This document shows, one piece after another, positions 4 to 47,283 of a DNA stretch of 64,000 bases. A program made the translations under genes and the position numbers. Source of the DNA: an uncultured bacterium (GTDB lineage Bacteria; Hydrothermota; Tepidihabitantia; Tepidihabitantales; DTDR01); the NCBI GenBank assembly GCA_938040315.1, contig CALHQW010000004.1, positions 32,700-96,699 of the forward strand, read 5' to 3'. Every line of letters begins with the position of its first letter. Positions within the stretch are counted from its first letter, which is position 1. The notes beneath the pieces were generated by a model that saw nothing but the letters and a program-made list of their open reading frames with translations, ran no database searches and was not told the DNA's origin.

Positions 4-1134
4 GTGGAATATCCAGAGGGCGCAAAACCAAAAAGGGTTTTAAATTTTTGTGCGAATAATTATCTTGGTTTATCAAGTCATCCAAAAGTATTGGAAGCAG
101 CAAGAAAGGGTTTAGAATCTCATGGATTTGGTCTTTCTTCGGTGCGTTTTATCTGTGGAACTCAGGATATTCATAAAATTTTAGAAAGAAAAATTGCCCA
201 ATTTTTAGGAACCGAAGATGCAATTTTATATTCCTCTTGTTTTGATGCTAATGCTGGACTTTTTGAGCCCTTATTTAATGAACAGGATGCAATTATTTCT
301 GACCGATTAAATCATGCCTCAATTATTGATGGGATAAGAATGTGTAAGGCAGAAAGATTTATTTTTCAACACGGCGATATGAAAGATTTGGAAGAAAAAT
401 TAAAGGCGACGCAACATAAAAGATTCCGAATAATTGCTACTGATGGTGTCTTTTCAATGGATGGTGATATTGCTAATCTTTCGGCTATTTGTGAATTGGC
501 TGATAAATATGATGCCTTGGTGATGATTGATGATGCCCATGCCACTGGTTTTATTGGTAAAACCGGTAGAGGAACGCCAGAGTACCATAATGTAATGGGA
601 AGGGTTGATATAATTACCACAACTTTTGGTAAAGCAATGGGTGGTGCTTCTGGTGGTTGCACAGCCTCTCGTAAGGAGATTGTAGAAATTTTAAGACAAC
701 GTTCAAGACCTTATCTATTTTCTAATACTTTAAGTCCGGTAATTGTAAATGCCACAATTGCAGTAATTGATTTATTAACGGAAACAACCGAATTAAGAGA
801 TAAATTAGAGTGGAATACAAAATATTTCCGTGAGAAGATGATGGAACTGGGATTTGATATTAAACCAGGAATTCATCCAATAGTGCCAATAATGCTTTAT
901 AATGCTCGGTTATCCCAAGAATTTGCTCGGGATTTATATTATGAAGGAATTTATGTAGTAGGTTTCTTCTATCCGGTAGTTCCGCGTGGCGAAGCAAGAA
1001 TTCGGGTTCAACTTTCTGCTGCCCATGAAAAAGACCACATTGATCAAGCCTTAGAAGCCTTTAAGAAAGTTGGTGATAAATATAAAATCCGGGGTAAGAA
1101 AAAAGAAGAAATTATTGCAATGTATGGCGAATAA
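4..1134 (+). CDS. kbl: glycine C-acetyltransferase (2-amino-3-ketobutyrate CoA ligase), 5'-truncated by window edge
   Basis: Near-colinear with E. coli Kbl. PLP-lysine region [13 protein letters not shown] and [25 protein letters not shown] motif present. The ORF runs to the window start, so about 20 aa are missing. Confidence 0.85.
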
Positions 1135-1140
1135 ATTTTT

Positions 1141-2043
1141 TTAAAAATAGGTGAATAAATAACCAAAAATTAACGATAAAATAGCCACTAAAGAAATATA
1201 AATAATAAAGACTTTTAATCCAAATTCTTTTTTTATCACAAGTATTGTTCCATAACTGGTAATTGGACCAGCCATCAATAATACCATACCAGCGCCAATA
1301 TTTAAACCTTGGTTTAAAAAGGCAGCAACTAATGGAACAGAGGCAGTCGCACAGATATACATTAATAAACCAAAGATTATAGCAAATAAATATCCATAAG
1401 GACCGCTGAGATATTTCTTAATTAAAATTCCAATTGGTGAGATAGTGGCGACAATTACTGCTAAAATTATTCCAATAACCAATTCTAAACCAATCTCCTT
1501 TGGTAAATCAATAAAACTATATGTTAAGATTGAGATAATTCTCTTTCTAAAACTCTTTTGGTGATGCATATGAAAAAGATGGGAAGAAACTTCTTCACAC
1601 ATTGGGCAGATATCGCTCTCGTTTTTCATTCCATTTTTTACTTTTAAGAGATTGCCAATAATTCCAATAATAATTCCCATAAGAATAACTGCTAAACAGA
1701 GATAAATTGTAAATTTTAATCCTAAAAGTTTATAGGTTATTAAAATTGCTGAAATAGAAGTTGCTGGTGTAGTTGCTAAAAAGGCTAATATTGAACCTAA
1801 AGGCATTCCTTTTTTCTTAAAACCAACTGCTACCGGTAAAGAACCAAAACAACATAAAGGTAAAATAATCCCTATCAGAGATACTCTTAATAAACTCCAA
1901 ATATCCTTTTTCCCAAAATACTTATTCACCAAATTCTGAGGAACAAATTCATGGATAATTCCACTTAATAAAAAACCTAATAAAAGAGAAGGGATAATTT
2001 CAAGACCATATTGCTTTAGATTAAATAAAAATATTGAAATCAT
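1141..2043 (-). CDS. DUF318/YraQ-family predicted permease with cytoplasmic CPMC..HLFHMHHQ metal/redox motif
   Basis: Polytopic membrane protein with two hydrophobic halves separated by a Cys/His-rich loop (CPMCEEVSSHLFHMHHQK). Last gene of a coupled operon, with a 4-bp overlap with the upstream ABC ATPase. Confidence 0.6.
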   Translation of the reverse strand: MISIFLFNLKQYGLEIIPSLLLGFLLSGIIHEFVPQNLVNKYFGKKDIWSLLRVSLIGIILPLCCFGSLPVAVGFKKKGMPLGSILAFLATTPATSISAILITYKLLGLKFTIYLCLAVILMGIIIGIIGNLLKVKNGMKNESDICPMCEEVSSHLFHMHHQKSFRKRIISILTYSFIDLPKEIGLELVIGIILAVIVATISPIGILIKKYLSGPYGYLFAIIFGLLMYICATASVPLVAAFLNQGLNIGAGMVLLMAGPITSYGTILVIKKEFGLKVFIIYISLVAILSLIFGYLFTYF

Positions 2044-2711
2044 ACAATCTTTCCATCTTTTAAATTTATCTTTCTAACATTAAATTTACTTATTAATTCC
2101 CAATTATGGGTAACCACAACTACAGTATAACCTTCTTTTGAGAGAGTTTCAAATATTTTAAAGATATTAAAAGCATTTTCCGAATCCAAATTTCCCGTAG
2201 GTTCATCAGCAAAGAGAATTAAAGGTTCAATAATTAATGCCCGAGCAATTGCTACTTTTTGCATCTCTCCGCCACTTAATTGAGAAGGACGATGTTTTAA
2301 TCGGGAAATTAAAGAAAGTTTTTCGGCAATTTCATAAATTTTTTCTTTTTTGTCTTTTCTCTTATTAAAATAAAAGGGCAATGTAATATTTTCATAAACC
2401 GTTAAATGAGGAAAAAGGAGAAAATTTTGAAAAATAAATCCAACATATTTACTTCTAATTTTTTGCAATTCCTTTTCTTTCATTAAAGAAATCTCTTTAT
2501 CTAAAAAAATTATTTTACCACTGGTTGGTTTATCAAAACCACTTAATAGATTTAACAAAGTGGTTTTTCCGGAACCAGAAGGTCCAAGGATAGCAACAAA
2601 CTCTCCTTTTTTTATTGTTAAATCAATATCTTTTAATGCCCATACCCTCTCTTCTCCTCTTAGATAAATTTTGTTTAATTTTTCCGTTTTTAAAATAATT
2701 TCATTATTCAT
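2040..2711 (-). CDS. ABC transporter ATP-binding protein (LolD/MacB/FtsE-like)
   Basis: Walker [11 protein letters not shown]-loop, ABC signature [15 protein letters not shown], Walker [14 protein letters not shown]-loop VVVTHN. Confidence 0.9.
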
Positions 2712-3867
2712 CGCTACTCCTAATTGTCTCCATCGGTCGCAAATTGATTGCCTTTAAAATTGGGTAAATACTTGCCAAAATAGCAATTGTTAAAGAATAA
2801 AGAAAAATAGTAGCAGCAATTTTCCAATCAAAATTAATTTCAATCTTTTTTGGTGAATGGGTAATAATTTCCTTAATAAAGGTTTCAATAAATTTGTTTC
2901 CACCAATCGTTAAAATTATTCCCAAAAGAGCACCAAGAATTACTAAAATCAAGGTCTCAAAAAAAATTAGTTTTACTATATCCCAATTATTCGCACCAAT
3001 AACTTTTAATAAGCCAATCTCTCTTCTTCTTTCCAACACGGAAATCAACATTGTATTAATCACTCCTAAACTGCTGATAAATAATGCCAAAATAATAATT
3101 GTATAGATTAGAGAATTTGCTTGACCGATGAGGTTTAAAATAGTACCCAAAACTTGCGTCATGGTCACAACTTGTAAATCGGGAATTTCTTCTAACTTTT
3201 TTATTACCTCCTCAATTTTTTCTAAATTTTTTACTTTGATCCCGATTGCGGTGATTAGACTTTCTTTGTTAAATATTCTTTGTACTTCCTTTAAGGGAAG
3301 AAAATAAAAACCGTCATCTTGCCCACCGGTATATTCCAAAATTCCAACTACTTGATAGATTTTATTAAATTTACGAAAATAGATTTCATCGCCAACCGTT
3401 AATTTTTCTTGGAAGGCAACATCGCTACCAATAACTATTTTATCATTCTCATTATTTTCAAAGAATCTACCTTTAACTTTCCAATATTTCTTAACCTTTT
3501 TATAACTTTCAATATCAATCCCATAAATAATACTTATCCGATCATCCTCTACTAATTGGGCAAGAAAAATTGGTGTAGCAATTTCCACTTCTGGTATATT
3601 TTTAATGGTTTTTAAATCTTCTTCTTTTAAATATTTAGGAATTATTCCGCCATGAACAATTAAAGAAGCTGCCTCATAGGGACAGCCCTTTGGTACGGCT
3701 AACATATGAACACCAAGGAGATCAAGTTCTTTAATTAAGGAGTTTTTATAACCCTGATTAAAGGTTAATAAAGAAAAGAGTAAAAAGATAGCGACACCGA
3801 TACCGAGAACAGTCAAAAAGGTCCTAATTTTTCTTCGTAAAATATTCTTAATAATTAAAATTAGCAT
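2704..3867 (-). CDS. ABC transporter permease, FtsX/MacB-type (LolC/E-like) with large periplasmic domain
   Basis: N-terminal TM helix, about 220-aa extracytoplasmic domain, then a three-TM FtsX-like C-terminal bundle. Overlaps the ATPase gene by 8 bp. Confidence 0.8.
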   Translation of the reverse strand: MLILIIKNILRRKIRTFLTVLGIGVAIFLLFSLLTFNQGYKNSLIKELDLLGVHMLAVPKGCPYEAASLIVHGGIIPKYLKEEDLKTIKNIPEVEIATPIFLAQLVEDDRISIIYGIDIESYKKVKKYWKVKGRFFENNENDKIVIGSDVAFQEKLTVGDEIYFRKFNKIYQVVGILEYTGGQDDGFYFLPLKEVQRIFNKESLITAIGIKVKNLEKIEEVIKKLEEIPDLQVVTMTQVLGTILNLIGQANSLIYTIIILALFISSLGVINTMLISVLERRREIGLLKVIGANNWDIVKLIFFETLILVILGALLGIILTIGGNKFIETFIKEIITHSPKKIEINFDWKIAATIFLYSLTIAILASIYPILKAINLRPMETIRSSDE

Positions 3868-3868
3868 C

Positions 3869-4222
3869 TCATTTAAATTCTACTCCCTTACCAACAATTA
3901 TCGGCTCACCATTTTTTATTTCTACTTTACCATACACTACCGTTTTTCTGCCCCTTCTTTGAGGAATGGCAAATTTCGAGGGTGCCAAATCGACATAAAT
4001 TTGACCAGTTTCATCTTGAATAAAAAACCAGCAACCACTGCCACATTCCGCAGTAATTTCGCCAACAATTAAAATCTCTTTATTTTGATAATTAGTTGGC
4101 GAATTGAGAATCTCTTTAATTTTGATTGGTGAAAGGTTATTGGGTATCTCTTTTCCATATTTATCTTTTGTTCCACAAGAAAATAATAAAATAATAATTA
4201 CCAAAGGTATTAATTTTTTCAT
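3869..4222 (-). CDS. small lipoprotein (OB-fold-like) with CGSGC motif
   Basis: Signal peptide plus lipobox-like LLFSC. 117 aa. Has a conserved-looking ECGSGCWFF motif. Directly abuts the FtsX gene. Confidence 0.5.
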   Translation of the reverse strand: MKKLIPLVIIILLFSCGTKDKYGKEIPNNLSPIKIKEILNSPTNYQNKEILIVGEITAECGSGCWFFIQDETGQIYVDLAPSKFAIPQRRGRKTVVYGKVEIKNGEPIIVGKGVEFK

Positions 4223-4755
4223 TTTTCCTCCTTTAAAATTTCATAAATAATCAACATTTTTTTAACAGAAAAGGCGATACTTTTTGATGCCTTCTCGGCT
4301 CCTTTTATTGGTTTAATTGTTTTATTTATTTCAATAGTATCTTTGAAACTTTTCCCTTTAAACTGGTTTAAAAAATTTTCACTTCTCAACTCTTTACTTT
4401 TTATTTCTCGGTCTCTTTGAATTAAAACTTTTTGAACACGATTTAAACTATCTAAACCAATTACTACTTCAATTGCTCCATACTGTCCTTTTTCTGTATG
4501 GGTAAGAACCGTGCCAATCCTTTTTTTATTCATAAAAATCAGATAAAAGGTGAATTCGGTCTCATCCGGGTCTAACTCTTTATTGATAAGTTTTTCAATA
4601 ATTTCCTTTTCTTTCTTATTATATCTTCTAACAACACTTTTATAACCAGTGGCTTGAGGAAAAATTTTTTTAATATCTTTATCGGGATCCCGCCAAATAC
4701 AAACACCGGCAAAAAGGATTTCGGTTATTAATAAAAATAAAAACATCTTCTTCAT
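4219..4755 (-). CDS. secreted/periplasmic protein, possible FMN-binding (FMN_bind-like) domain
   Basis: N-terminal signal/anchor MKKMFLFLLITEILFAG. C-terminal GAEKASKS resembles the S/T-G-A-T-x-S/T flavinylation motif of NqrC/RnfG-type domains, a weak match. 4-bp overlaps on both sides. Confidence 0.35.
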   Translation of the reverse strand: MKKMFLFLLITEILFAGVCIWRDPDKDIKKIFPQATGYKSVVRRYNKKEKEIIEKLINKELDPDETEFTFYLIFMNKKRIGTVLTHTEKGQYGAIEVVIGLDSLNRVQKVLIQRDREIKSKELRSENFLNQFKGKSFKDTIEINKTIKPIKGAEKASKSIAFSVKKMLIIYEILKEEK

Positions 4756-5537
4756 ATTTTAAAATTGCCTTGGATTATTGGTTTAAATTCTTTTTTAAAT
4801 AAATAATTAAACCCTAATTTTAACTCCAAAAATCTCCAATTTTTTGTCAATTCTAAATTAAAATTATTTTCTTTTTCCCAATATTTATATCCCAGTTTTG
4901 TTTCTAATTCCCAAATCGGAATAAAAGTAAGGATTAAAAATATTCCTTTGCTTTTCTTTAAAGAATAAACTAATTCACTTTTGAAATCAAAGATAAGATA
5001 AATAAGGTTAAGATCCAAAGCAATAAATTTTTCTTTTTCTTTTAAGAAAGTAAAACCAAATTTACCTTTTTCTTTATCTAACCCAAATCTTAAAGTAAAA
5101 ATTGGCTCTTTTAATTCCCAATTTTTAAAGGAATAATTAAAATCAAAAAGAAAATCTTTTATATAGCCAAAAAAAGTGGCACCAATAGTTTTCTTATAAC
5201 TTAAGACATCTTCATATAAAGGTTGGAAGAAAAGAAAATGGGTATCATAATATTTTAAAAGGGAAAAGGGAATATCAAATCTACCTATTTTCAAATTTAA
5301 ATTTCCCATGGAATTTTTCAAGTAAAGATACTCGTCTCCATAATGCTGCCAAAAATGGTGGCTAAAATGGGAGGTAAAAGGGACTTGAAGAAAAATTATT
5401 AATCGGTCAAAATCTTCTCCTAAAATGAAACGGAAATTAATCTCAGAACCATGAAGATAAAGTTCTTTTTCATACCGCCAGGTAAAATAGCCATCAATTT
5501 TATAAGAAAAACTAAGTATCAAAAATAATAAAATCAT
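4752..5537 (-). CDS. putative outer-membrane beta-barrel protein
   Basis: Signal peptide, alternating aromatic/hydrophilic pattern throughout, C-terminal aromatic residue near the end (…QGNFKI). No recognisable enzyme motifs. Confidence 0.35.
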   Translation of the reverse strand: MILLFLILSFSYKIDGYFTWRYEKELYLHGSEINFRFILGEDFDRLIIFLQVPFTSHFSHHFWQHYGDEYLYLKNSMGNLNLKIGRFDIPFSLLKYYDTHFLFFQPLYEDVLSYKKTIGATFFGYIKDFLFDFNYSFKNWELKEPIFTLRFGLDKEKGKFGFTFLKEKEKFIALDLNLIYLIFDFKSELVYSLKKSKGIFLILTFIPIWELETKLGYKYWEKENNFNLELTKNWRFLELKLGFNYLFKKEFKPIIQGNFKI

Positions 5538-6088
5538 AGATATTTCAATATCTCTTTAATTATTAAAACTATCTCTTTTGGCTCTTTTCCTAAGACGACA
5601 AATAATGGCTCCTTTCCTAAGCCAGCCGTCTCATAAAATATTTGAGGAATCTCTTTAAATTTTTTATAAAGATAATCAATTTTCCAAGGCATTGAACTTT
5701 TCTCTTTCAATTGATATTTTTTGGGTTCTTTTCCTCTCTCAATTACACCGATAGTTATTTTTCTTTTCTTAGCAACTTTCTTAACTATTTTTAATATCTT
5801 TTTATCAAACTTAAAATTGATCGCGGACCGATATTTGGGATTATACTTCTTTACTGCTAACAATAACCGAGCAAGATGGTCAGAAGCACCAAATTTTACT
5901 TTTCCTGCCGGACAAGGTTTATTGTTGACGATTGTGATCCGACCATCAACACCGGCAATATCTTTTATACTCTTTGCTTCTTTCTTGGCATAAACAAAAT
6001 TTGTCCTCACTTCTGGTATTAAAAAACTGAACTTCTTTTCTCTTTTTAATTCGTTAATTGCTTTTGTTAATTCTTTTATTACATTCAT
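5534..6088 (-). CDS. ThiN-like (archaeal-type thiamine-phosphate synthase domain) protein
   Basis: 184-aa soluble protein. Resemblance to the ThiN family (PF10120) is from memory only, so the call is tentative. Coupled by a 4-bp overlap to the PurM-like gene. Confidence 0.35.
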   Translation of the reverse strand: MNVIKELTKAINELKREKKFSFLIPEVRTNFVYAKKEAKSIKDIAGVDGRITIVNNKPCPAGKVKFGASDHLARLLLAVKKYNPKYRSAINFKFDKKILKIVKKVAKKRKITIGVIERGKEPKKYQLKEKSSMPWKIDYLYKKFKEIPQIFYETAGLGKEPLFVVLGKEPKEIVLIIKEILKYL

Positions 6089-7101
6089 AAAGTGCTAAAA
6101 TAGGCATCCCAAAAGGGGTCAACTTTCACGGGCAGAAGTTTCTCTTCTTTTCCATCTTTTCTTATAAAAATTCTTTCTTTTTCAATTACCTCACCCACCT
6201 CCCAAGCCAAAATTCCATTCTCTTTTAGGTCTTTTATCAAACTCGCCACTTTTTCTTTTTGAACCGTAATTACTAATGTTCCTTCGCTTATGGAAATTAA
6301 GGGGTCAATTTTAAAATACTCGCAAATCGTTTTTACTTCTTCTAAAATAGGGATTTTCTCTTCATATACTATTACTCCTACCTTACTGGCTTCAGCAATC
6401 TCATAGATTCCATTTAGCAAGCCACCTTCCGTAGCGTCGTGCATCGCATTTGCATACTTTCTTGCAATCAACGCATCTTTCACTACGGTCATTTCCCAAA
6501 TTAATTTCTTTGCTTTATCAATGATTTTCTGACCAATAACTTCCTTTAATTTTTCCTCTGCTTGATAGGCTAAAATTGCCGCTGCTTCAATTGCCGGACC
6601 TTTAGTAACCACTATCTTATCACCAATTTTGGCATTACTGGCAGGAGTCAATTCTTCTTTTTTACCAATCCCAAATACAGTACAACCACCATTTAAAGGA
6701 TAGGCAATTCCGGGATAAACACCGGTATGTCCGCCAATAATTGAAATTCCTAATTTATTACATTCGGAAGATATCTGCTGCCAAATTTCCTCTAAGATTT
6801 TCATATCGCTCTGAGGTGGTAAAAGAAGAGAAATTGTCATATATTCTGGTTTTACACCTAAGACTGCAACATCACTTGCACAAATATGAACAATTGCCCA
6901 ACCAAAAAAAGGCATTATCACAGGCATTCCAAAAGTGGGATCACAAGCAACAACCATAACTTTATTTTCATCAATTTCTATTACTCCGGCATCCACTCCG
7001 TGCATCGGTTTAATAATTACTCTTGGGTCCGTTTTTCCTAAATTAGGAAAAATAATTCTCTCAAACACCTCTCTATCAATTTTTCCAATTCTTGGTAACA
7101 T
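6085..7101 (-). CDS. AIR-synthase-related (PurM/HypE/ThiL/SelD superfamily) protein
   Basis: N-domain GVDAGVI…VVACDP, central IIGGHTGV (GG-D/H-T motif), PurM-like C-domain with DATEGGL. Confidence 0.65.
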   Translation of the reverse strand: MLPRIGKIDREVFERIIFPNLGKTDPRVIIKPMHGVDAGVIEIDENKVMVVACDPTFGMPVIMPFFGWAIVHICASDVAVLGVKPEYMTISLLLPPQSDMKILEEIWQQISSECNKLGISIIGGHTGVYPGIAYPLNGGCTVFGIGKKEELTPASNAKIGDKIVVTKGPAIEAAAILAYQAEEKLKEVIGQKIIDKAKKLIWEMTVVKDALIARKYANAMHDATEGGLLNGIYEIAEASKVGVIVYEEKIPILEEVKTICEYFKIDPLISISEGTLVITVQKEKVASLIKDLKENGILAWEVGEVIEKERIFIRKDGKEEKLLPVKVDPFWDAYFSTL

Positions 7102-7507
7102 GATTACTTCCCTTTATTAAATCTTTTAATGTCAATCTGTTAAGAATTTTTTTCCAATTTTCGCTTAATAATTGCCACAATCTTCTTGCTTCACAATATT
7201 TTGCTCTTTTACAAATTTTTGGATTTAAAACACAATCCACCAAAGAGATTTCACCATCTAAGACTTTGAAAATATTTAACAATTTAATCTCCTTTGGTTT
7301 TAAAGCAAGTAAATACCCCCCCTCCTTCCCTCTAACGCTCCTTACCAAACCTCCTTTTAAAAGTAGATTAATAATCTTTTCAGCATACTTAATCGGAATT
7401 GTTTGTTTTTGGGCAATAGATTTTAATGATAAGGGTCCTTTTTTGTAATCCTTCCCCATTTGAATCATCAGTCTTAATCCGTAACGTAAAATTGTTGTAA
7501 CTTTCAT
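7076..7507 (-). CDS. Rrf2-family (IscR/NsrR-like) transcriptional regulator with Cys ligands
   Basis: N-terminal wHTH (LKSIAQKQTIPIKYAEKIINLLLKGGLVRSVRGKEGGYLLA) followed by the Cys cluster CVLNPKICKRAKYC. First gene of the minus-strand operon. Confidence 0.8.
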   Translation of the reverse strand: MKVTTILRYGLRLMIQMGKDYKKGPLSLKSIAQKQTIPIKYAEKIINLLLKGGLVRSVRGKEGGYLLALKPKEIKLLNIFKVLDGEISLVDCVLNPKICKRAKYCEARRLWQLLSENWKKILNRLTLKDLIKGSNHVTKNWKN

Positions 7508-7620
7508 TTCCTACTATTTCTATCTGAATAATTATAATTAAAATTTAAAAAAAAGTCAATAATTTATTTATGACCGAATTAAGAAAGAATAAATAGGAAC
7601 TTTTGGTTGCTTTTTCATTG

Positions 7621-7653: not shown

Positions 7654-8697
7654 GTGTTTGGATTTTTTGCTTCTCTAAAAGAAAGATTTAGTAATGAAAT
7701 TGCCATTGATTTAGGCACCTCTACTACGCTTATTTATGTAAAAGGTAAAGGAATAATGTTAAGGGAACCTTCCATTGTTACGGTTGATGAAAAAAATCAT
7801 ACACCCATTGCGGTTGGTTTGGAGGCAAAAAAAATGCTCGGTAGGACACCGGAAGGCTTAAAGGCGATAAGACCAATGAAAGACGGAGTTATTGCTGATT
7901 TTAGTTTGGTAGAAGTAATGTTAAGAACTTTTATTGAAAAAGTTCAAAGAAAGAAGTTATTGGTGAGACCCAAGGTAATTATTTGTGTTCCTTCTGGTGT
8001 TACCGAGGTAGAAAAAAGGGCGGTAAAAGATTCTGCTGAAGCCTGTGGTGCTCGGGAGGTATATTTAGTATCCGAACCCATTGCTGCGGCAGTTGGTGTT
8101 GGTTTACCGGTGGATGCACCAACTGGCAATATGATTATTGATATTGGTGGCGGAACGACCGAAATTGCGGTGGTGGCTCTTTCTGGAGTGGTTACCTGTA
8201 ATTCAATAAGAGTTGCTGGTGATGAAATGGATGAAGCAATTATCAATTATATCAAAAAGAATTATAATTTAGTAATTGGCGAACAAACTGCGGAAATGAT
8301 AAAAATTCAAATCGGTTCTGCCTATCCAACTGGGCAAGAAGAAGAAATGGAGGTTAAAGGTCGTGATTTAGTTTCGGGAATTCCTAAAACAATTAAACTT
8401 ACCTCTTTGAAGATTCGGGAAGCCTTGCAGGAACCGGTGTCGATAATTGTTAGTGCGGTAAAGAAAGCCTTAGAGAAAACACCGCCCGAATTAGCCGCTG
8501 ATATTGTTGATCATGGTATTTATATGACCGGCGGTGGCTCTTTATTAAAGGGACTTGATAAATTGATTAGCGAAGAAACAAATTTAAAGGTTAATGTTGC
8601 GGAAAACCCTATCGACTGTGTGGTATTAGGTGCCGGAAAAATTTTGGAAGATATAAAAAAGAATTCCAAATTATTACTAAAAACCGATTTTTTCTAA
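7654..8697 (+). CDS. mreB: rod shape-determining protein MreB
   Basis: Actin-like ATPase motifs: DLGTSTT, DIGGGTTE, GGGSLL. Colinear with E. coli MreB. Confidence 0.95.
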   Translation: MFGFFASLKERFSNEIAIDLGTSTTLIYVKGKGIMLREPSIVTVDEKNHTPIAVGLEAKKMLGRTPEGLKAIRPMKDGVIADFSLVEVMLRTFIEKVQRKKLLVRPKVIICVPSGVTEVEKRAVKDSAEACGAREVYLVSEPIAAAVGVGLPVDAPTGNMIIDIGGGTTEIAVVALSGVVTCNSIRVAGDEMDEAIINYIKKNYNLVIGEQTAEMIKIQIGSAYPTGQEEEMEVKGRDLVSGIPKTIKLTSLKIREALQEPVSIIVSAVKKALEKTPPELAADIVDHGIYMTGGGSLLKGLDKLISEETNLKVNVAENPIDCVVLGAGKILEDIKKNSKLLLKTDFF

Positions 8698-8700
8698 AAT

Positions 8701-9540
8701 TTGTTGATATCCAAAAAAAGAAGTGAAAAAAATAAATATCTTTCTTTTATCCCTATTTTATTGTCTTTAATTATCTTTTTTTCTCCAAGAGATTTTAAAT
8801 TAAAAATCTTCCTCTTGCCTAATTCTATTCTTTTAAAACCCTTGGTGATGGTTAAGCAATTTTTATTATCTTTAAAAAATTTTCAAAAGGAGAGAAATTA
8901 TCTTTACGAACTTACTTTAAAACAAAATTTAACTTTAGCCTACTTAAAAAAAATCGCTAATTTTTCTTCCTTCTCTTTGGAATCTTTAGAAAATGCTTAT
9001 ATTATAAGAAGAGCAAATATTATTAGTCGAGATAATTCTTTAAAAAAATATTTGATTATTGATAAAGGTTTAAAAGATTCAATAATGGTAAATTTTCCAG
9101 TGCTCACTCACCAAGGGGTTGTGGGAAAGGTTATTGCTTGTAGTGATGAAATAAGCGTAATAGAAACTTTTTATTCTCCCTATTTCAGAATTTCGGCAAA
9201 AGTTCAGAGAAATGGTTATCTCACTTGTGTTGGCTGTAAAGGCGATATTTTGTATTTAGACTATTTAGATGATAAATGTGATATTAAAGAAAATGATACA
9301 ATTGTCTCTACAGAAATTGGTGGAATTTTTCCTGAGGGATTGAAAATTGGTGTGGTAAAAAAAATTGAGAAAAAAGAAAATGGTGTGTTTAATGTGATAC
9401 TTGAACCAGCGGTTAACCTATTTGCCATTAATGATGTATATCTCTTACAAAAAAGAGTTAGTAAGATTAAAAAGGATGAATTGGAATTATTATTAAAACA
9501 GTTGGAATTAAAATTACCAGAAATAAAATTTATAAAATGA
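8701..9540 (+). CDS. mreC: rod shape-determining protein MreC
   Basis: Position directly after mreB. N-terminal TM, coiled-coil region and C-terminal beta domain. TTG start as in the ORF track. Confidence 0.7.
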   Translation: MLISKKRSEKNKYLSFIPILLSLIIFFSPRDFKLKIFLLPNSILLKPLVMVKQFLLSLKNFQKERNYLYELTLKQNLTLAYLKKIANFSSFSLESLENAYIIRRANIISRDNSLKKYLIIDKGLKDSIMVNFPVLTHQGVVGKVIACSDEISVIETFYSPYFRISAKVQRNGYLTCVGCKGDILYLDYLDDKCDIKENDTIVSTEIGGIFPEGLKIGVVKKIEKKENGVFNVILEPAVNLFAINDVYLLQKRVSKIKKDELELLLKQLELKLPEIKFIK

Positions 9541-9932
9541 AAAAGGTCTTTTTAATAATTTTGATTTATCTCTTTTTTCTTTTAGAAAATTTATCTCCTA
9601 ATATTTTTCCTAAGATTAGTATTACTCTTTTTGTTTTTAATGCTTTTTCTTCTTCTTTATTATTTTCTACTTTTTTAGGTTTTCTCTTAGGACTTTTATT
9701 TGATTTAAATAATCCAACGTTTTTTGGTCTTAATATGTTTATTTTTTCTGGTATTGGCTTTCTTATTCCCTATCTGCGTAACTTTATTTTACCAACAACC
9801 TATAATATTTTCTTTTCTTTAATTTTTATTCTCCTTCTCTTTTCTATTGTTAATCAAAATTTTTTCTTAATAAGTTTTCTTTTAACATTAATATTTTTCT
9901 TTTTAATTAAAAAATATGAAAAGAAAATTTAA
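9537..9932 (+). CDS. mreD: rod shape-determining protein MreD (small polytopic membrane protein)
   Basis: 131-aa, very hydrophobic, 4-5 TM. Conserved position between mreC and mrdA. 4-bp overlap with mreC. Confidence 0.5.
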   Translation: MKKVFLIILIYLFFLLENLSPNIFPKISITLFVFNAFSSSLLFSTFLGFLLGLLFDLNNPTFFGLNMFIFSGIGFLIPYLRNFILPTTYNIFFSLIFILLLFSIVNQNFFLISFLLTLIFFFLIKKYEKKI

Positions 9933-11712
9933 AAATTTCATCCTCTTTACCTCTCTGCTCTTTTTGATTATTTTTAGTAGGGTTTTTTATTTACAAGTTT
10001 TAAAAGGCGAAAGATATGAAAAATTGTCCTATAATCAAAGAATAAGAAAAGTTATTTTAAGAGCACCCCGAGGAAGAATATTTGATGCTCAAGGTTTTTT
10101 AATTGCGGATACTAAATTATCTTATAACTTATCTATCTTACCTCAAGAGATTGATACCAGTTTTATATTTCAATATATCTCCAAAATTCTTAATATTGAT
10201 ATTAATAATTTAAAAGAAAAAATAATAGAATATAAAAATTATCCTTATCCAATTTTAGTCAAAAGAAATTTATCAAAAGAAGAAATAATTAGATTAGAAG
10301 AAAATTTGATATTTAAACAGGGGATAAGAATTGAAATCAATCCTTCTCGATATTATCCTTTCAAAAATGTTTCTTCCCTGGCGATCGGCTATTTAAATGA
10401 AACTTCCAAAGAAGATCTAAACAAAGATACTCTTTATAATTTGGGTGATTTAATTGGCAGATATGGAATAGAAGGATATTACGAAAAGATTTTGAGAGGG
10501 AAAGATGGTCTTGCTTTAATTGAAGTAGATGCGCGAGGAAGAGAAATCCAACCTTTCTCTGAAGCAAAAGAGATTCCAGCGGTTTCCGGTGCTGATATTT
10601 ATCTCTCTTTAGATATAAATTTAAACTTGTTCTGTGATTCTTTGCTTAATAATTATTCGGCTGGTTTAATATTAGGTATAGAACCAAAGACAGGAAGAAT
10701 CATAATTTTTTCAGGAAAACCAAATTTTGATCCAAACATGTTTTTAAAATTAAACTATAAAGAATGGCAAAGGTTAATAAAAGATAAAGGAAAACCTTTG
10801 TTCTCTCGAATTGTTGCCGGACTTTATCCCCCGGGTTCTACTTTCAAACCCTTTATTGCTTTACAAGCCTTAAAGAAAGGATTAATTGACGAAAAATCCC
10901 TTTTTTCGCCTTGTTATGGACAATATAAAATCGGTAAAAAAAATTTTAAATGTTGGCAAAGTCACGGTTCTTTAAATTTGGTTGATGCCATTGCTTATTC
11001 CTGTAATATCTATTTTTATCAATTAGGAATAAAATTAGGATTGAAAGAAATTTTAAAATTAATGAAAGATTTAAATATTCCAAATAAAACCAATGTGGAT
11101 TTATTAGAAGAAACAAATTCTCGAATTCCTGAGTACCAAACTGCTCCCTTAGGGAAAATTGCTAACCTTGCTATTGGACAAGGTGAAATTGCTTTAACAC
11201 CAATTAAATTAGCAGAACTTTATTGTGGAATATTTAACAATGGTCTTATTCCTCAACTCCATTTTTTAGATTCAATAAAAAATGCCAAAATTTTCCATCG
11301 CGATTTCTTAGATTCTTTAATCAAAAAGAATATTATTAAAATGATTATTAACGATAAAAAGGAGACTCTTTATCAATATATAAATAAATTTTATCGAATT
11401 CCTTTTCCTTTAGAAGTGATAGAAACTATAAAAAAGGGTTTATTAGCAGTGGTGGAAAAAGGAACAGGTAGAAGTGCTGGTGTACCTGGTGTGAAAGTCT
11501 ACGGAAAAACTGGGACTGCTCAAAATCCTTTTGGTAAAGACCATGCCTGGTTTATTGGTTATGCGGAAAAAAGAGATAAGAATTTATTGTTAGTAATTCT
11601 TTTAGAAAATGTTGGTGCTGGTGGTGTCTATGCGACACCAATAGCAAGAAAAATTTTTGTCAAATATTTTTCTTCCTATGTGGCAGAAAGGGAAAACAAT
11701 TTTAATAATTAG
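9916..11712 (+). CDS. mrdA: penicillin-binding protein 2 (peptidoglycan D,D-transpeptidase MrdA)
   Basis: N-terminal TM, SxxK (GSTFKP), SxN (YSCN) and KTG (YGKTGTAQ) motifs. Confidence 0.9.
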   Translation: MKRKFKNFILFTSLLFLIIFSRVFYLQVLKGERYEKLSYNQRIRKVILRAPRGRIFDAQGFLIADTKLSYNLSILPQEIDTSFIFQYISKILNIDINNLKEKIIEYKNYPYPILVKRNLSKEEIIRLEENLIFKQGIRIEINPSRYYPFKNVSSLAIGYLNETSKEDLNKDTLYNLGDLIGRYGIEGYYEKILRGKDGLALIEVDARGREIQPFSEAKEIPAVSGADIYLSLDINLNLFCDSLLNNYSAGLILGIEPKTGRIIIFSGKPNFDPNMFLKLNYKEWQRLIKDKGKPLFSRIVAGLYPPGSTFKPFIALQALKKGLIDEKSLFSPCYGQYKIGKKNFKCWQSHGSLNLVDAIAYSCNIYFYQLGIKLGLKEILKLMKDLNIPNKTNVDLLEETNSRIPEYQTAPLGKIANLAIGQGEIALTPIKLAELYCGIFNNGLIPQLHFLDSIKNAKIFHRDFLDSLIKKNIIKMIINDKKETLYQYINKFYRIPFPLEVIETIKKGLLAVVEKGTGRSAGVPGVKVYGKTGTAQNPFGKDHAWFIGYAEKRDKNLLLVILLENVGAGGVYATPIARKIFVKYFSSYVAERENNFNN

Positions 11713-12844
11713 TTTAATTTTGATTATTTTGGGGTTTCTTAATATTTATTTTAGCGGTGGGAAAAAATATCTTTTTCGTCAAATTACTTTCTTCATAGTA
11801 GGAGTATTTCTTTTAATTTTATCAATGAGGGCTTCTTTAAAAATAATTTTTAATTTAAGTTTTTATTGGTATTTATTTTCCATCATCCTATTAATTTTAG
11901 TGTTATTTCTTTCTAAAAATAATGCCAAAAGATGGTTGGACTTATATCTCTTTACTTTTCAACCTTCGGAAATAACCAAAATTACGTATGTCTTATTCTT
12001 ATCATATTTTTTATCTGGCCAAAAAAAATTTGATTTTAACTTTAATTCCTTATTTTTACCGGTTTTAATAACTTTAATACCGACATTTTTAGTTTTAATT
12101 CAACCCGATTTAGGTTCAGCCTTTTCTTTCCTTTTTATCTTTGCTATTCTTTTATATTTTCGAGGTTTTTCCTTTTCCCAAATTTTTATTCTTTATTCAC
12201 CCTTATTTTCTTTTATCTTTGGATTTTCTTTATTAACTTGGATTACCTATTTTTTATTTCTGATTTTCATCGCTTTTAGAAAAAATACTATTTTTTACGG
12301 TTTTGGAGTTTTGGCAGTAAATAGTTTTTTTGGACTTTTAAATCCTTTAATCTGGCAAAATTTAAAAGAGTATCAAAGAGAAAGAATTATTGCCTTTTTA
12401 GCTCCTTATTTGGATCCCAAGGGTATTAGTTGGAGTAGTATTCAAGCACAAATTGCTATTGGTAGTGGAAGAATCTTCGGAAAGGGTTTTTCTCATCCTC
12501 CTCTAAGCAAATTAGATTTTATTCCCAACCCTCATACCGATTTTATTTTTACTACCCATTCAGAGAAATTTGGTTTAATTGGAGTAACCTTTTTAATTTT
12601 ATTATATTTCTTGTTTCTTTATCAGATTTACCATTATTTAATTAAGAATATTGATTTAAAATCCCAACTAACAATTGCTGGTTTGGGCGCTATTTTTCTT
12701 TACCACATTTTTGTAAATTTAGGAATGGTGTCGGGGATTTTACCGGTTACGGGTTTAACTCTACCGTTTATCTCTTACGGTGGAACTTCTTTAATTAGTA
12801 ATTTGATAACAATCGGTTTAATTTTAAACTTAATTAATCAATAA
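11657..12844 (+). CDS. rodA: peptidoglycan glycosyltransferase RodA (SEDS family)
   Basis: 10-TM FtsW/RodA/SpoVE pattern with conserved late periplasmic loop. Follows mrdA. The true start is possibly 11678; it overlaps the mrdA 3' end. Confidence 0.85.
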   Translation: MSNIFLPMWQKGKTILIISLILIILGFLNIYFSGGKKYLFRQITFFIVGVFLLILSMRASLKIIFNLSFYWYLFSIILLILVLFLSKNNAKRWLDLYLFTFQPSEITKITYVLFLSYFLSGQKKFDFNFNSLFLPVLITLIPTFLVLIQPDLGSAFSFLFIFAILLYFRGFSFSQIFILYSPLFSFIFGFSLLTWITYFLFLIFIAFRKNTIFYGFGVLAVNSFFGLLNPLIWQNLKEYQRERIIAFLAPYLDPKGISWSSIQAQIAIGSGRIFGKGFSHPPLSKLDFIPNPHTDFIFTTHSEKFGLIGVTFLILLYFLFLYQIYHYLIKNIDLKSQLTIAGLGAIFLYHIFVNLGMVSGILPVTGLTLPFISYGGTSLISNLITIGLILNLINQ

Positions 12845-13863
12845 TGGAAAATATAAAATCTTTTACTTTAAAAGAACTTAAAGAGTTAGTAGAAAATTTG
12901 AATTGGCCCGAATACAGTGCTTATCAAATATTTCAATGGCTTTGGCAAAAAAAAGTTAACGATTTCTCTTTGATGAGTAATCTTTCTAAATTAAAAAGAG
13001 AATATTTAAAAAATAATTATATAATTACTGAATTAAAAATTATTGGCAACAAAAAAGCAAAGGATGGTACAGAAAAATTTCTATTTGAACTTTATGATAA
13101 TAATAAAGTAGAGACAGTATTTATTCCGGAAGAAAAAAGAAAAACAGTGTGTGTTTCTTCCCAAATTGGTTGTCCTTTAAAATGTCTTTTTTGTAACAGC
13201 GGAAAGATATCTTTTAAAAGAAATTTATATTTTTATGAAATTTGTGACCAGATATTAATGATTGAAAAAAAATTAAATATAAAACCAACAAATATTGTTT
13301 TTATGGGAATTGGCGAACCTCTATTAAATTTGGAAGAAGTTTTAAAAGCAATCCAAGTAATAACCTCTCCTATTGGCTTTGGAATAAGTGCCCGTAAAAT
13401 TACTATTTCTACTGCGGGAATTGTTGAGGGTATTTATCGTTTAGCCGAAATAAAGAAGAAAGTGAAATTGGCTATTTCTTTAAATGCTACTAAAGACGAG
13501 ATTAGAGAATACTTAATGCCGATAAATAAAAAATATCCAATTTCTGAAATTTTAAAAGCCTGTGAGTATTATTGGCAGAAAAAAAGAGAAAGAATCACTT
13601 TTGAATATGTTTTAATAAGAGATATTAACGATAGCGAAGAGGATGCTTATTCTTTAAGTAGAATATTAAAAAAGATTCCTTGCAAAATTAACCTTATTCC
13701 ATTTAATTCTTTTCCCAGTATTTCTTTTCAGCCACCCTCTTTAAAAAGAATAGAAAAGTTTATGAAAATATTAGTCGAAGCTAATTACACAGTGACTCTA
13801 AGAAAAAGTCATGGTCAAGAAATTCTTGCTGGTTGTGGTCAACTTGCTTATCAAAATTATTAA
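12844..13863 (+). CDS. rlmN: 23S rRNA (adenine2503-C2)/tRNA methyltransferase RlmN (radical SAM)
   Basis: CPLKCLFCNSG radical-SAM CxxxCxxC. Colinear with RlmN/Cfr, including the C-terminal catalytic Cys region (AGCGQL). Confidence 0.85.
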   Translation: MENIKSFTLKELKELVENLNWPEYSAYQIFQWLWQKKVNDFSLMSNLSKLKREYLKNNYIITELKIIGNKKAKDGTEKFLFELYDNNKVETVFIPEEKRKTVCVSSQIGCPLKCLFCNSGKISFKRNLYFYEICDQILMIEKKLNIKPTNIVFMGIGEPLLNLEEVLKAIQVITSPIGFGISARKITISTAGIVEGIYRLAEIKKKVKLAISLNATKDEIREYLMPINKKYPISEILKACEYYWQKKRERITFEYVLIRDINDSEEDAYSLSRILKKIPCKINLIPFNSFPSISFQPPSLKRIEKFMKILVEANYTVTLRKSHGQEILAGCGQLAYQNY

Positions 13864-35542: not shown

Positions 35543-35614
<72 letters not shown>

Positions 35615-46855: not shown

Positions 46856-46884
46856 TTTTCCTCCGTTTTTTATTATTTTTTTCT

Positions 46885-46957
46885 ACCCCGCGCAGGAGTC
46901 GAACCTGCAGCCCTCGGATTAAGAATCCGATGCTCTACCAATTTGAGCTAGCGGGGC
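46885..46957 (-). tRNA. tRNA-Lys (anticodon CUU)
   Basis: Reverse complement GCCCCGC…anticodon loop TTCTTAA…GGTTCGACTCC. Confidence 0.8.
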
Positions 46958-46968
46958 AGTAATTTAAA

Positions 46969-47042
46969 TGCGCCCGGCGCGACTCGAACGCGCAACCTAC
47001 GGGTTCGAAGCCCGGCGCTCTTTCCAATTGAGCTACGGGCGC
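46969..47042 (-). tRNA. tRNA-Arg (anticodon UCG)
   Basis: Reverse complement GCGCCCG…loop CTTCGAA…GCGTTCGAGTCGC. Confidence 0.8.
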
Positions 47043-47047
47043 AAATA

Positions 47048-47121
47048 GGTGAGCGACGGGAGTCGAACCCGCAACCCGTGGAGCCACAGTCCACTGCTCT
47101 ACCAATTGAGCTACGCTCACC
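47048..47121 (-). tRNA. tRNA-His (anticodon GUG) with encoded G-1
   Basis: Reverse complement G-GTGAGCG…loop CTGTGGC…GGTTCGACTCC…CGCTCAC-C. The G-1:C73 pair is typical of tRNA-His. Confidence 0.85.
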
Positions 47122-47131
47122 ATAAAATAAT

Positions 47132-47205
47132 CGCGCCTGGAGGGATTCGAACCCCCGACCGTCGGATTAGAAATCCGATGCTCTCTCCAACTGAGCTACA
47201 GGCGC
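47132..47205 (-). tRNA. tRNA-Arg (anticodon UCU)
   Basis: Reverse complement GCGCCTG…loop TTTCTAA…GGTTCGAATCC. Confidence 0.8.
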
Positions 47206-47208
47206 CTA

Positions 47209-47283
47209 TCGGGGAGACTGGATTTGAACCAGCGACCCCCTCGTCCCAAGCGAGGTGCGCTTGCCAGGCTGCGCTACTCCCCG
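47209..47283 (-). tRNA. tRNA-Pro (anticodon UGG)
   Basis: Reverse complement CGGGGAG…loop CTTGGGA…GGTTCAAATCC…CTCCCCG. Confidence 0.85.

Follow-up and report, generated by a model that had tools for sequence, protein, structure and literature searches.

Type VII ATP-binding cassette (ABC) transporters work by mechanotransmission, and what they act on are substrates or partners in the periplasm. The closest described architectures to the one analyzed here are FetMP-FetABCDEF/Fls of Campylobacter and of E. coli and Salmonella plasmids, and SifABCDE of Bifidobacterium, the accessory set of FetMP (P19) iron uptake. These clusters bear YHS and Cys-rich domains, and in the E. coli IncF Fet-Fls cluster an NqrC-like protein stands together with FTR1, P19, DUF2318/YHS, TlpA, an ATPase and a pair of FtsX permeases. 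What the ABC part does in such clusters is likewise unexplained. The subject of our study is a nine-gene operon located in a 64,000-nucleotide stretch of DNA (further called the window) from an uncultured bacterium, contig CALHQW010000004.1, whose close homologues are labelled candidate division WOR-3. Five of its genes, for a porin-fold barrel, an RnfG/NqrC-fold protein, a predicted OB-fold lipoprotein, an FtsX-type permease and its ATPase, make up an envelope system of five components, undescribed so far, mobile and widely scattered, which most probably serves soft-metal handling. Like Fet/Fls/Sif, this module combines an ABC ATPase and one or more permeases of the FtsX type with small extracytoplasmic proteins of NqrC/RnfG and/or thioredoxin fold. 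It differs from Fet/Fls in the lack of FTR1 (FetM), P19 (FetP) and DUF2318 and in the presence of a porin and an OB-fold Cys protein, and while Fet is a Fur-regulated iron uptake system, the module adjoins ArsR and efflux genes.

The nine ORFs of the operon are found on the minus strand from 7507 down to 1141, exactly where an earlier note, made from the letters of the window, had placed them. Along the operon, 5' to 3', the genes overlap by 26, 4, 4, 4 and 4 nt, then leave one nucleotide (3868) free where the lipoprotein gene is followed by that of FtsX, and overlap again by 8 and 4 nt. The tight coupling described in the note stands therefore in coordinates and orientation, except that one of the eight junctions is not an overlap. 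Homologues were found for 9/9 ORFs, so all of them are real genes. The Rrf2, PurM-superfamily, ThiN, MacB_PCD plus FtsX, ABC ATPase and DUF318-type permease calls were borne out by Pfam and NCBIfam matches, and the quoted motifs (ECGSGCWF, lipobox LFSC, CPMC...HLFHMHH) are present. The note had also proposed a dedicated envelope-spanning system built of all nine genes and suggested checking the neighbourhoods in related genomes. Such a check retains the system and not its extent: five genes are kept together across phyla, the Rrf2, PurM-like and ThiN genes form a separate group, and the permease joins only in WOR-3-type loci. The operon is thus a composite of three units, fused in a lineage-specific manner and presumably under one promoter: unit A, the envelope module (4752-5537, 4219-4755, 3869-4222, 2704-3867 and 2040-2711); unit B (Rrf2, PurM-like, ThiN; 7076-7507, 6085-7101, 5534-6088); and unit C, the permease (1141-2043).

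Conservation of the module was followed by searching one genome per GTDB species with the profile of the RnfG-like protein and scoring all ORFs of 30 loci with the nine window proteins. Wherever the contig was long enough, the barrel, RnfG-like, OB, FtsX and ABC genes co-occurred, with one or two copies each of FtsX and ABC per locus, and three loci which at first seemed to have no barrel do carry it. The lineages are WOR-3, Armatimonadota with Chthonomonadales, Candidatus Zipacnadia, Kofleriaceae, an Acidobacteriota MAG (metagenome-assembled genome) and two Bacillota-labelled MAGs. The position of the barrel gene varies, being upstream, downstream or between the other module genes, and co-occurrence in such shuffled order resembles the outcome of selection for co-inheritance rather than frozen synteny. 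No recurrent additional neighbour was noticed: in a Pfam census of 106 proteins flanking the module no family had more than two members, and clustering brought only more barrel genes. No Pfam or NCBIfam model was found that covers the barrel, the RnfG-like family, the OB protein or the entire module, and no description of any of them was met in the searchable literature, which leaves most subscription journals outside; the earlier note, too, knew of no described system with such a composition.

The permease (2704..3867, minus strand) is of the FtsX/MacB type, with PF12704 matched at residues 16-227 (79.4 bits) and PF02687 at residues 256-376 (84.9 bits), both over gathering scores. Its layout is that of type VII ABC permeases: a MacB_PCD periplasmic domain between the first and second transmembrane helices (TM1 and TM2) and a C-terminal FtsX domain. 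The long version of its start is backed by conserved N8/R12/R15. Just after TM1 it has Cys62 in the motif P-x-G-C-P-x-E-A-A, kept in 47/47 homologues, and eight residues before it a near-invariant H54. The partner ABC ATPase (2040..2711, minus strand; PF00005, 127 bits) has intact Walker A, signature (LSGGEMQ) and Walker B (LFADEPT) motifs in its translation. An ordinary explanation would be that no dedicated system exists, the FtsX/ABC pair being a housekeeping LolCDE or FtsEX and the remaining genes unrelated and only tightly packed. The best NCBIfam names are indeed LolD, FtsE and LolC/E, and overlapping genes are frequent in small genomes. All scores fall, however, far below the curated equivalog cut-offs (permease against lolCE, 82.9 vs 362 bits; ATPase against LolD, 222 vs 308, and against FtsE, 213 vs 265), so that identity with LolCDE, MacB or FtsEX was rejected. 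Moreover, this clade of FtsX proteins is marked by an invariant Cys motif peculiar to it, and the five genes stay together in at least seven lineages, in shuffled order, and on a plasmid as well. This explanation is already contradicted, and we find it hardly credible.

The first gene of the module (4752..5537, minus strand) encodes a 261-aa protein, which the earlier note took for an aromatic-rich secreted protein and possible outer-membrane barrel. Modelling with AlphaFold2 on an alignment of 40 homologues gave a 16-strand barrel at pLDDT 82, and Foldseek against PDB returned OmpU, OmpF, OmpC and the Rhodobacter blastica porin (query-normalised TM 0.66-0.75, E down to 2e-9), with almost all of the top 50 structural matches being porins, in agreement with that suggestion. 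At the sequence level, the profile had no match in PDB, and 5 of 23 family members matched Porin_4 or Porin_O_P at weak E-values. Between strands 5 and 6 the model has a 27-residue loop with two short helices, in which the invariant motif G-x-F-x-x-P-F...D-T-H...Q is located; H65, H100, D175 and E188 are also invariant. In porins, the loop after strand 5 occupies the constriction-loop position, and the motif-bearing loop would accordingly lie in the lumen.

The second protein (178 aa; 4219..4755, minus strand) is secreted and has the RnfG/NqrC fold, similar to FMN_bind (AlphaFold2 pLDDT 90). Foldseek matched it to RnfG and NqrC chains with E from 3e-7 to 1e-3 and query-normalised TM of 0.44-0.64, while its similarity to TIGR01947 (rnfG) is only E 3e-5 and PF04205 gave no match. 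The earlier note had proposed an FMN_bind-like flavinylation motif here. The fold was confirmed; the motif was not, because the acceptor Thr of SGAT is replaced by E, D, N or P in 23/23 aligned members, the window protein having G-A-E-K-A-S at this position. ApbE was not among the top 25 families reported for the 106 proteins flanking the module. Conserved instead is C19-x-W21, invariant and placed right after an AxA-type signal-peptide site; this C19 is not in a lipobox, since position -1 is V or L. D62 and E65 are invariant too, and H86 nearly so. The family is small, with 40 representatives at E<=1e-30 among 1.84 billion sequences, beyond which ordinary FMN_bind proteins appear. As a side observation, the same profile also matches very long proteins, the longest of 1636 aa, in which 4-13 FMN_bind-like stretches follow one another in tandem (P0150-P0180), presumably the multi-flavinylated proteins of the literature.

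The third component (117 aa; 3869..4222, minus strand) is a small lipoprotein with lipobox LFSC and a predicted OB fold, based on weak but consistent matches to YgiW/BOF, RPA14 and N-terminal domains of aminoacyl-tRNA synthetases; the PDB sequence-profile matches are also weak. It accompanies the module at nearly all loci and carries the motif E-C-x-S-G-C-W (ECGSGCWF in the window, E-C-x-x-G-C-W in the family), with the first Cys (C60), G63 and D70 invariant. The Armatimonadota protein is anchored by a transmembrane helix and not lipidated. Each of the three periplasm-exposed parts of the module, FtsX, OB and RnfG-like, has thus an invariant Cys.

The genomic surroundings of the module point to metals. 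When the window FtsX was compared by tblastn with plasmids, one strong match was obtained, on NZ_CP019036 of Massilia putida 6NM-7, a 78-kb mobilizable plasmid whose host comes from wolfram mine tailings. The operon there consists of an ArsR/SmtB regulator, proteins of 313, 190 and 127 aa, a permease, an ATPase and a DsbD-N-domain protein, and is flanked by transposase and recombinase genes; by phmmer, the three hypothetical proteins are, respectively, the barrel, the RnfG-like and the OB protein. The plasmid also bears dmeF, an RcnR-type repressor, a resistance-nodulation-division (RND) pump with TolC and a second cation diffusion facilitator (CDF). In a metagenome contig (L123), the module, here with two OB genes, follows CzcB, an RND pump, an HMA-CDF protein, an ArsR with ELCVCD, an ECF sigma/anti-sigma pair and a redoxin. 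In Kofleriaceae (L022) an HMA P1B-ATPase lies directly upstream, and other module loci have a divergent HMA lipoprotein (L001), a YHS protein (L011) or an AhpC/TSA-YHS fusion (L023) beside them. Two plasmids carry the next-closest FtsX genes. That of Vibrio campbellii (NZ_CP092684, L121:3673-7061), with Cys at the same place, is accompanied by an ArsR (ELCVCD), an OB-like protein (162 aa, transmembrane-anchored, with a CxxxxC motif), ABC and TlpA, after which come a pair of SMR genes and a P-type ATPase, and a Tn3 transposase adjoins the locus. This locus is related to the module more remotely, has three genes and belongs to a bacterium that has been cultured. In Pelobacter propionicus the context is P1B-ATPase, HMA, DUF2318, FtsX and ABC. 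Literature searches on the Massilia plasmid found no paper, and those on DUF2318/FtsX/ArsR nothing relevant. Apart from this, mnmH (tRNA 2-selenouridine synthase) was noticed on NZ_CP019036 beside type IV secretion genes (L118:32386-33465).

Among the candidate functions of the earlier note, delivery of a metal is the one favoured by these neighbourhoods. In the reading we prefer, though we put it at a little short of an even chance, the module handles or extrudes a thiophilic metal or metalloid from the periplasm at the cost of ATP. That metal-linked type VII ABC systems, FetBCD/Fls and PA4063-66/Zrg, are already known was counted in its favour. From the observed gene order, folds, motifs, conservation and neighbourhoods we infer the class of substrate, a thiolate relay, a role of the porin loop and a regulatory logic in the following way. 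The thiolates of the FtsX, OB and RnfG-like proteins would bind a metal(loid) of the Cu/Ag, Zn/Cd/Pb or As/Sb class. Hydrolysis of ATP in the cytoplasm would be passed mechanically through the periplasmic domain of FtsX, as in other type VII ABC systems, and the movement of FtsX would pass the metal from one partner to another and set it free towards, or through, the porin lined with His, Asp and Gln, the net outcome being clearance of the metal from the periplasm. Only in WOR-3 might the SO_0444-like permease supply the cytoplasm-to-periplasm step, and in aerobes thioredoxin-fold, TlpA or DsbD-N partners could keep the thiols reduced. Derepression of the ArsR type is typical of efflux and detoxification genes, and the outward direction is suggested by such regulation and by the efflux-gene neighbours.

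Several points weigh against this proposal. Its main weakness is that the porin is passive and that there is neither a membrane-fusion adaptor nor a TolC-type duct; energised extrusion across the outer membrane would be without precedent in such form, and a porin would suit entry equally well. The regulator in the window is Rrf2 and no metal sensor, a few lineages no longer have the second Cys in the OB motif, and the inner-membrane permease falls below the cut-off of the SO_0444 family. The nearest architectural analogues, Fet/Fls and Sif, serve iron uptake and not efflux. The repeated linkage of the module to PurM-like and ThiN genes is explained by a metal model only indirectly. Lastly, the metal role of every module member is a prediction made from its sequence and context.

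A rival reading has transport in the opposite direction: a soft metal in short supply, or Fe(II), would enter by the porin and be captured by the Cys proteins, and the type VII ABC would aid its transfer to a permease, here ArsP_1, in parallel with Sif, with Vibrio ZrgABCDE or with FetBCD, which supports FetMP iron uptake together with FMN-binding or thioredoxin proteins. The porin is suited to entry, and the architecture is parallel to that of Fet/Fls; in Sif, an FMN-binding protein goes with an ATPase and a pair of FtsX permeases; the YHS and thioredoxin-fold neighbours in L011 and L023 go along with it, and the Fe-S-type Rrf2 and the NifS/NadA neighbours in L053 would fit an iron or Fe-S regulon. 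Nevertheless, FTR1, P19 or EfeUOB-type genes were seen in none of about 35 module loci, the regulators outside WOR-3 are ArsR/SmtB or ECF sigma and not Fur/Zur, the neighbours are efflux pumps, and in most lineages no permease is beside the module. The similarity of the window FtsX to FlsA and FlsB amounts to 68 and 72 bits (E ~1e-22), which is generic and family-level, and the GCP motif is missing there; the Fls-linked NqrC-like protein carries DGISGATLTS, being a true SGAT flavoprotein, and shows no detectable similarity to the RnfG-like protein of the window, in which such a site is missing. A direct kinship with Fet/Fls was not retained, the relation being of family level, and acquisition of a metal seems to us unlikely, with perhaps a minor share of the total probability.

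The same cysteines could also serve a periplasmic thiol-redox or reactive-sulfur system, where the three of them would carry persulfide or polysulfide or exchange disulfides, in order to acquire or detoxify sulfur for Cys, thiamine and Fe-S metabolism. What is invariant are single Cys residues and not full metal sites; thioredoxin-fold, TlpA and DsbD-N partners recur; a TauE-family gene follows the module in L004; and the linked Rrf2/PurM-like/ThiN unit elsewhere adjoins NifS, CysK, CysE, MoeB/ThiF and NcsA/TtuA-like genes. Some members of the ArsR family sense persulfides, which was also counted for the sulfur function. The metal(loid) site ELCVCD is, however, present in the ArsR proteins beside the module and its relatives, the genes around are of the HMA, YHS, P1B-ATPase, Czc and CDF kinds and not sqr, pdo or rhodanese, and the thioredoxin-fold partners are explained equally well by reduction of metal-binding thiols in aerobes. 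We regard the sulfur function as improbable.

Unit B opens with an Rrf2-family regulator (7076..7507, minus strand; PF02082 114.8 bits, TIGR00738 121.9 bits) of the predicted Fe-S-cluster-binding class. It has conserved C92, C99 and C105 (Cx6Cx5C), the three being kept in 20/20 Rrf2 proteins whose genes accompany either the module or the PurM-like gene, and remains under the equivalog cut-offs of CymR, IscR, NsrR and RirA. The next gene (6085..7101, minus strand) encodes a PurM-superfamily (AIRS/AIRS_C; PF00586 and PF02769) ATP-utilising enzyme, whose best PDB relatives are HypE and ThiL (E ~1e-17). Its scores are below the cut-offs of hypE (112 vs 252 bits) and selD (94 vs 125 bits), by which HypE and SelD were dismissed, as well as of thiL (120 vs 184 bits). 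The third protein (5534..6088, minus strand) is a stand-alone ThiN-domain protein of the thiamine-phosphate-synthase type (PF10120, 173 bits at a gathering score of 25), matching PDB 2pb9 at E 1e-39 and MJ0236 at E 5e-24.

When metagenomes were searched with the PurM-like profile, at least 586 matches were confirmed, from which the best 80 loci were analyzed. ThiN adjoins the PurM-like gene in 37/80 of them (23 downstream, 14 upstream) and an Rrf2 gene lies within 4 kb of it in 13. Genes that also recur nearby encode NifS (15 loci), a thiolation enzyme similar to NcsA/TtuA (13), CysK (9), NadA (8), CysE (7), MoeB/ThiF (5) and, in a few, ThiD and ThiE, while FtsX of the module type was present at only 3/80; the FtsX genes near PurM-like in L070 and L080 were discarded, having no Cys motif and belonging to a different clade. 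A scan of ten subfamily members with the thiL model gave 74-108 bits for seven, the remaining three being outside the 1e-20 listing limit, and in L073 a member stands beside a canonical ThiL (276 bits), to which the window PurM-like protein is 25% identical. ThiL was accordingly rejected, all the scanned members being below its cut-off and one coexisting with the canonical enzyme. These neighbours, the ThiL of L073 and the ten sub-cut-off scores let us predict an enzyme tied to thiamine and sulfur relay which is not ThiL. The three genes, judged by their neighbourhoods, form a separate conserved unit, usually found without the envelope module and most readily described as a thiamine/sulfur-cofactor unit. 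Literature searches on COG2144/COG1992 and on AIR-synthase-related plus ThiN proteins brought nothing relevant.

The thiamine cluster of L073 (9303-14432) has the order TenA-like, PurM-like, TenA, ThiE, ThiL, ThiD, and members of the subfamily were seen inside thiamine salvage or synthesis clusters also at L114:9986-13186 and L095:5025-7597; clusters of the L073 type suggest that the PurM-like protein may catalyse an unrecognised ATP-dependent step linked to thiamine. A small ferredoxin scoring above the cut-off of the HgcB model (mercury methylation ferredoxin) was noticed at most about 1 kb from the PurM-like gene in five loci: L094 (12110-12439), L045, L069, L082 and L096.

It is here that the suggestion of the earlier note that the whole nine-gene set exports or salvages a thiamine- or flavin-related metabolite has to be weighed. 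ThiN and a PurM-like gene genomically tied to ThiN, ThiE, ThiD and TenA would speak for it, as would the repeated co-location with OB, FtsX and ABC and the RnfG/NqrC fold of one partner. The contexts of the module give it no pointer, though: most module loci have no thiamine gene and, as said, few PurM-like loci have the module-type FtsX; there is no TPP riboswitch, and the flavinylation motif is absent. In addition, type VII ABC systems are not known as inner-membrane importers, and elsewhere the module resides in metal resistance islands. We consider such a function very improbable.

The thiamine-type unit and the envelope module nevertheless meet repeatedly, in L010, L019, L027, L043 and L053/54. 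L043 contains all nine genes in an order different from the window. In L053 (7546-13889) and L054 (7524-11620) a minimal set of OB, FtsX and ABC is followed by PurM-like and ThiN, and in L053 further by NadA and NifS; both Cys motifs are there (OB lipoprotein ECPxGCWF, FtsX PKGCPYEAAS), and genes of the porin and the RnfG-like protein are not. This minimal variant may come from a monoderm organism. Unit B probably shares the operon since both units answer to the same Rrf2 signal. The signal could be damage to Fe-S or thiol chemistry caused by soft metals, which would destroy the Fe-S enzymes on which thiamine and NAD synthesis depend, and this might account for co-regulation. A direct biochemical link between the envelope module and the PurM-like/ThiN unit is also conceivable. 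Extended to its full form, the metal reading becomes a new soft-metal route, in which a type VII ABC system drives Cys-to-Cys hand-over from FtsX through OB to the RnfG-fold protein and on to a ligand-lined porin, the RnfG fold being re-used as a metal carrier and the whole being mobile, with the PurM-like protein as a co-regulated, unrecognised ATP-dependent step of thiamine or sulfur-cofactor metabolism. Taken together, this many-part proposal is rather unlikely, and we put it forward tentatively.

Unit C is an ArsP_1-family (DUF318-type) inner-membrane permease (1141..2043, minus strand; PF03773, 140 bits). The closest model is NF033936, the SO_0444 Cu/Zn efflux family (216.6 bits, cut-off 300), followed by SaoE (144 bits, cut-off 325), both matched over the full length. 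Its Cys/His-rich loop CPMCEEVSSHLFHMHH (CPMC...HLFHMHH) is accompanied by PLCC, while for the family of SO_0444 and that of SaoE a CSC motif is described. The permease is joined to the module only in L006, L009 and L043, all loci of WOR-3 type. SO_0444 is required by Shewanella under Zn or Cu stress, as shown with complementation (PMC3219624), and in Nitratiruptor Cd and Cu act as inducers of a transporter of this type (PMC10092412). The SAO (selenocysteine-assisted organometallic) locus (Haft preprint) was rejected as a counterpart of our operon, having in common with it only the permease superfamily and generic similarity of the ABC ATPase; no MerB-like SaoL, SaoP/SaoB/SaoA importer or SaoC/T/D is present in the operon.

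The nine genes are probably placed on a single transcript, judging from their packing. A sigma-70-like sequence, TTGACT-17-TATAAT (7531..7559, minus strand), is located upstream of the Rrf2 gene, in the 146-bp gap separating it from the divergent mreB cluster. It is a consensus match only, yet the sole strong site and the only 11/12 match on the minus strand of the region, in which promoter-like sites are not enriched (26 vs 32 expected from shuffles). No Rfam family was found in the operon region, including the TPP riboswitch already mentioned, and an Rrf2 operator palindrome upstream was given up, as the intergenic region holds only low-complexity AT palindromes, which are uninformative. The 3' end of the operon is 6 bp from the convergent ORF 4-1134 (plus strand), which by eye resembles PLP-dependent acyltransferases such as 2-amino-3-ketobutyrate CoA ligase or 8-amino-7-oxononanoate synthase. 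A Logan contig carries the same gene order. On the other side, at 7654-13863 (plus strand), mreB, mreC, a small membrane ORF (mreD-like), PBP2 and RodA lead away from the operon, and an RlmN-type radical SAM gene comes after RodA; the names in this cell-shape cluster were taken from Pfam tags of the identical Logan contig. Further on, the window has a tight array of five tRNA genes at 46884-47283 (minus strand) and four single ones at 35543, 43626, 54116 and 54657.

The known means of clearing metals from the Gram-negative envelope are RND pumps such as Cus and Czc, P1B-ATPases together with their chaperones, CDF transporters and multicopper oxidases. If the proposed role is true, a conserved and mobile system with a type VII ABC transporter at its base would be another way of doing so and, by analogy, would explain what the ABC part is for in clusters of the Fet/Fls/Sif type, which have long lacked an explanation. 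The plasmid of Massilia putida 6NM-7, a cultured aerobic betaproteobacterium, makes it testable by standard genetics, unlike in uncultured WOR-3. The PurM-like subfamily, with its several hundred matches, is for its part an unassigned enzyme of gene clusters for thiamine and sulfur relay.

Among other known systems, PA4063-PA4066 of P. aeruginosa and ZrgABCDE of Vibrio resemble the module by description, consisting of a split MacB-type ABC transporter and small periplasmic proteins, one of them a metal chaperone, and acting in metal homeostasis. They differ from it in their partner proteins, in Zur regulation under Zn limitation, in the proposed pyochelin-Co substrate and in having no dedicated porin or Cys motif. 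CusF is a small periplasmic OB-fold protein with a Trp beside the ligands (Met2His and Trp, not Cys), and hands a soft metal to its pump. The likeness of CusCFBA to the module is a functional analogy only; Cus is an RND/MFP/TolC assembly (MFP, membrane fusion protein) driven by the proton-motive force. MacAB-TolC, LolCDE-LolA, FtsEX-EnvC and YbbAP-TesA have the permease architecture and the ATPase in common with the module, so that mechanotransmission is to be expected in it as well. HlyD-family adaptors and TolC-family factors are absent from the operon and from the conserved module genes, as are LolA/B, EnvC and TesA; the place of these partners is taken by OB-fold and RnfG-fold proteins and a porin-fold barrel. 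Type VII ABC envelope machines and their engagement in metal homeostasis are already known; for the five-part composition of the module no described counterpart was found.

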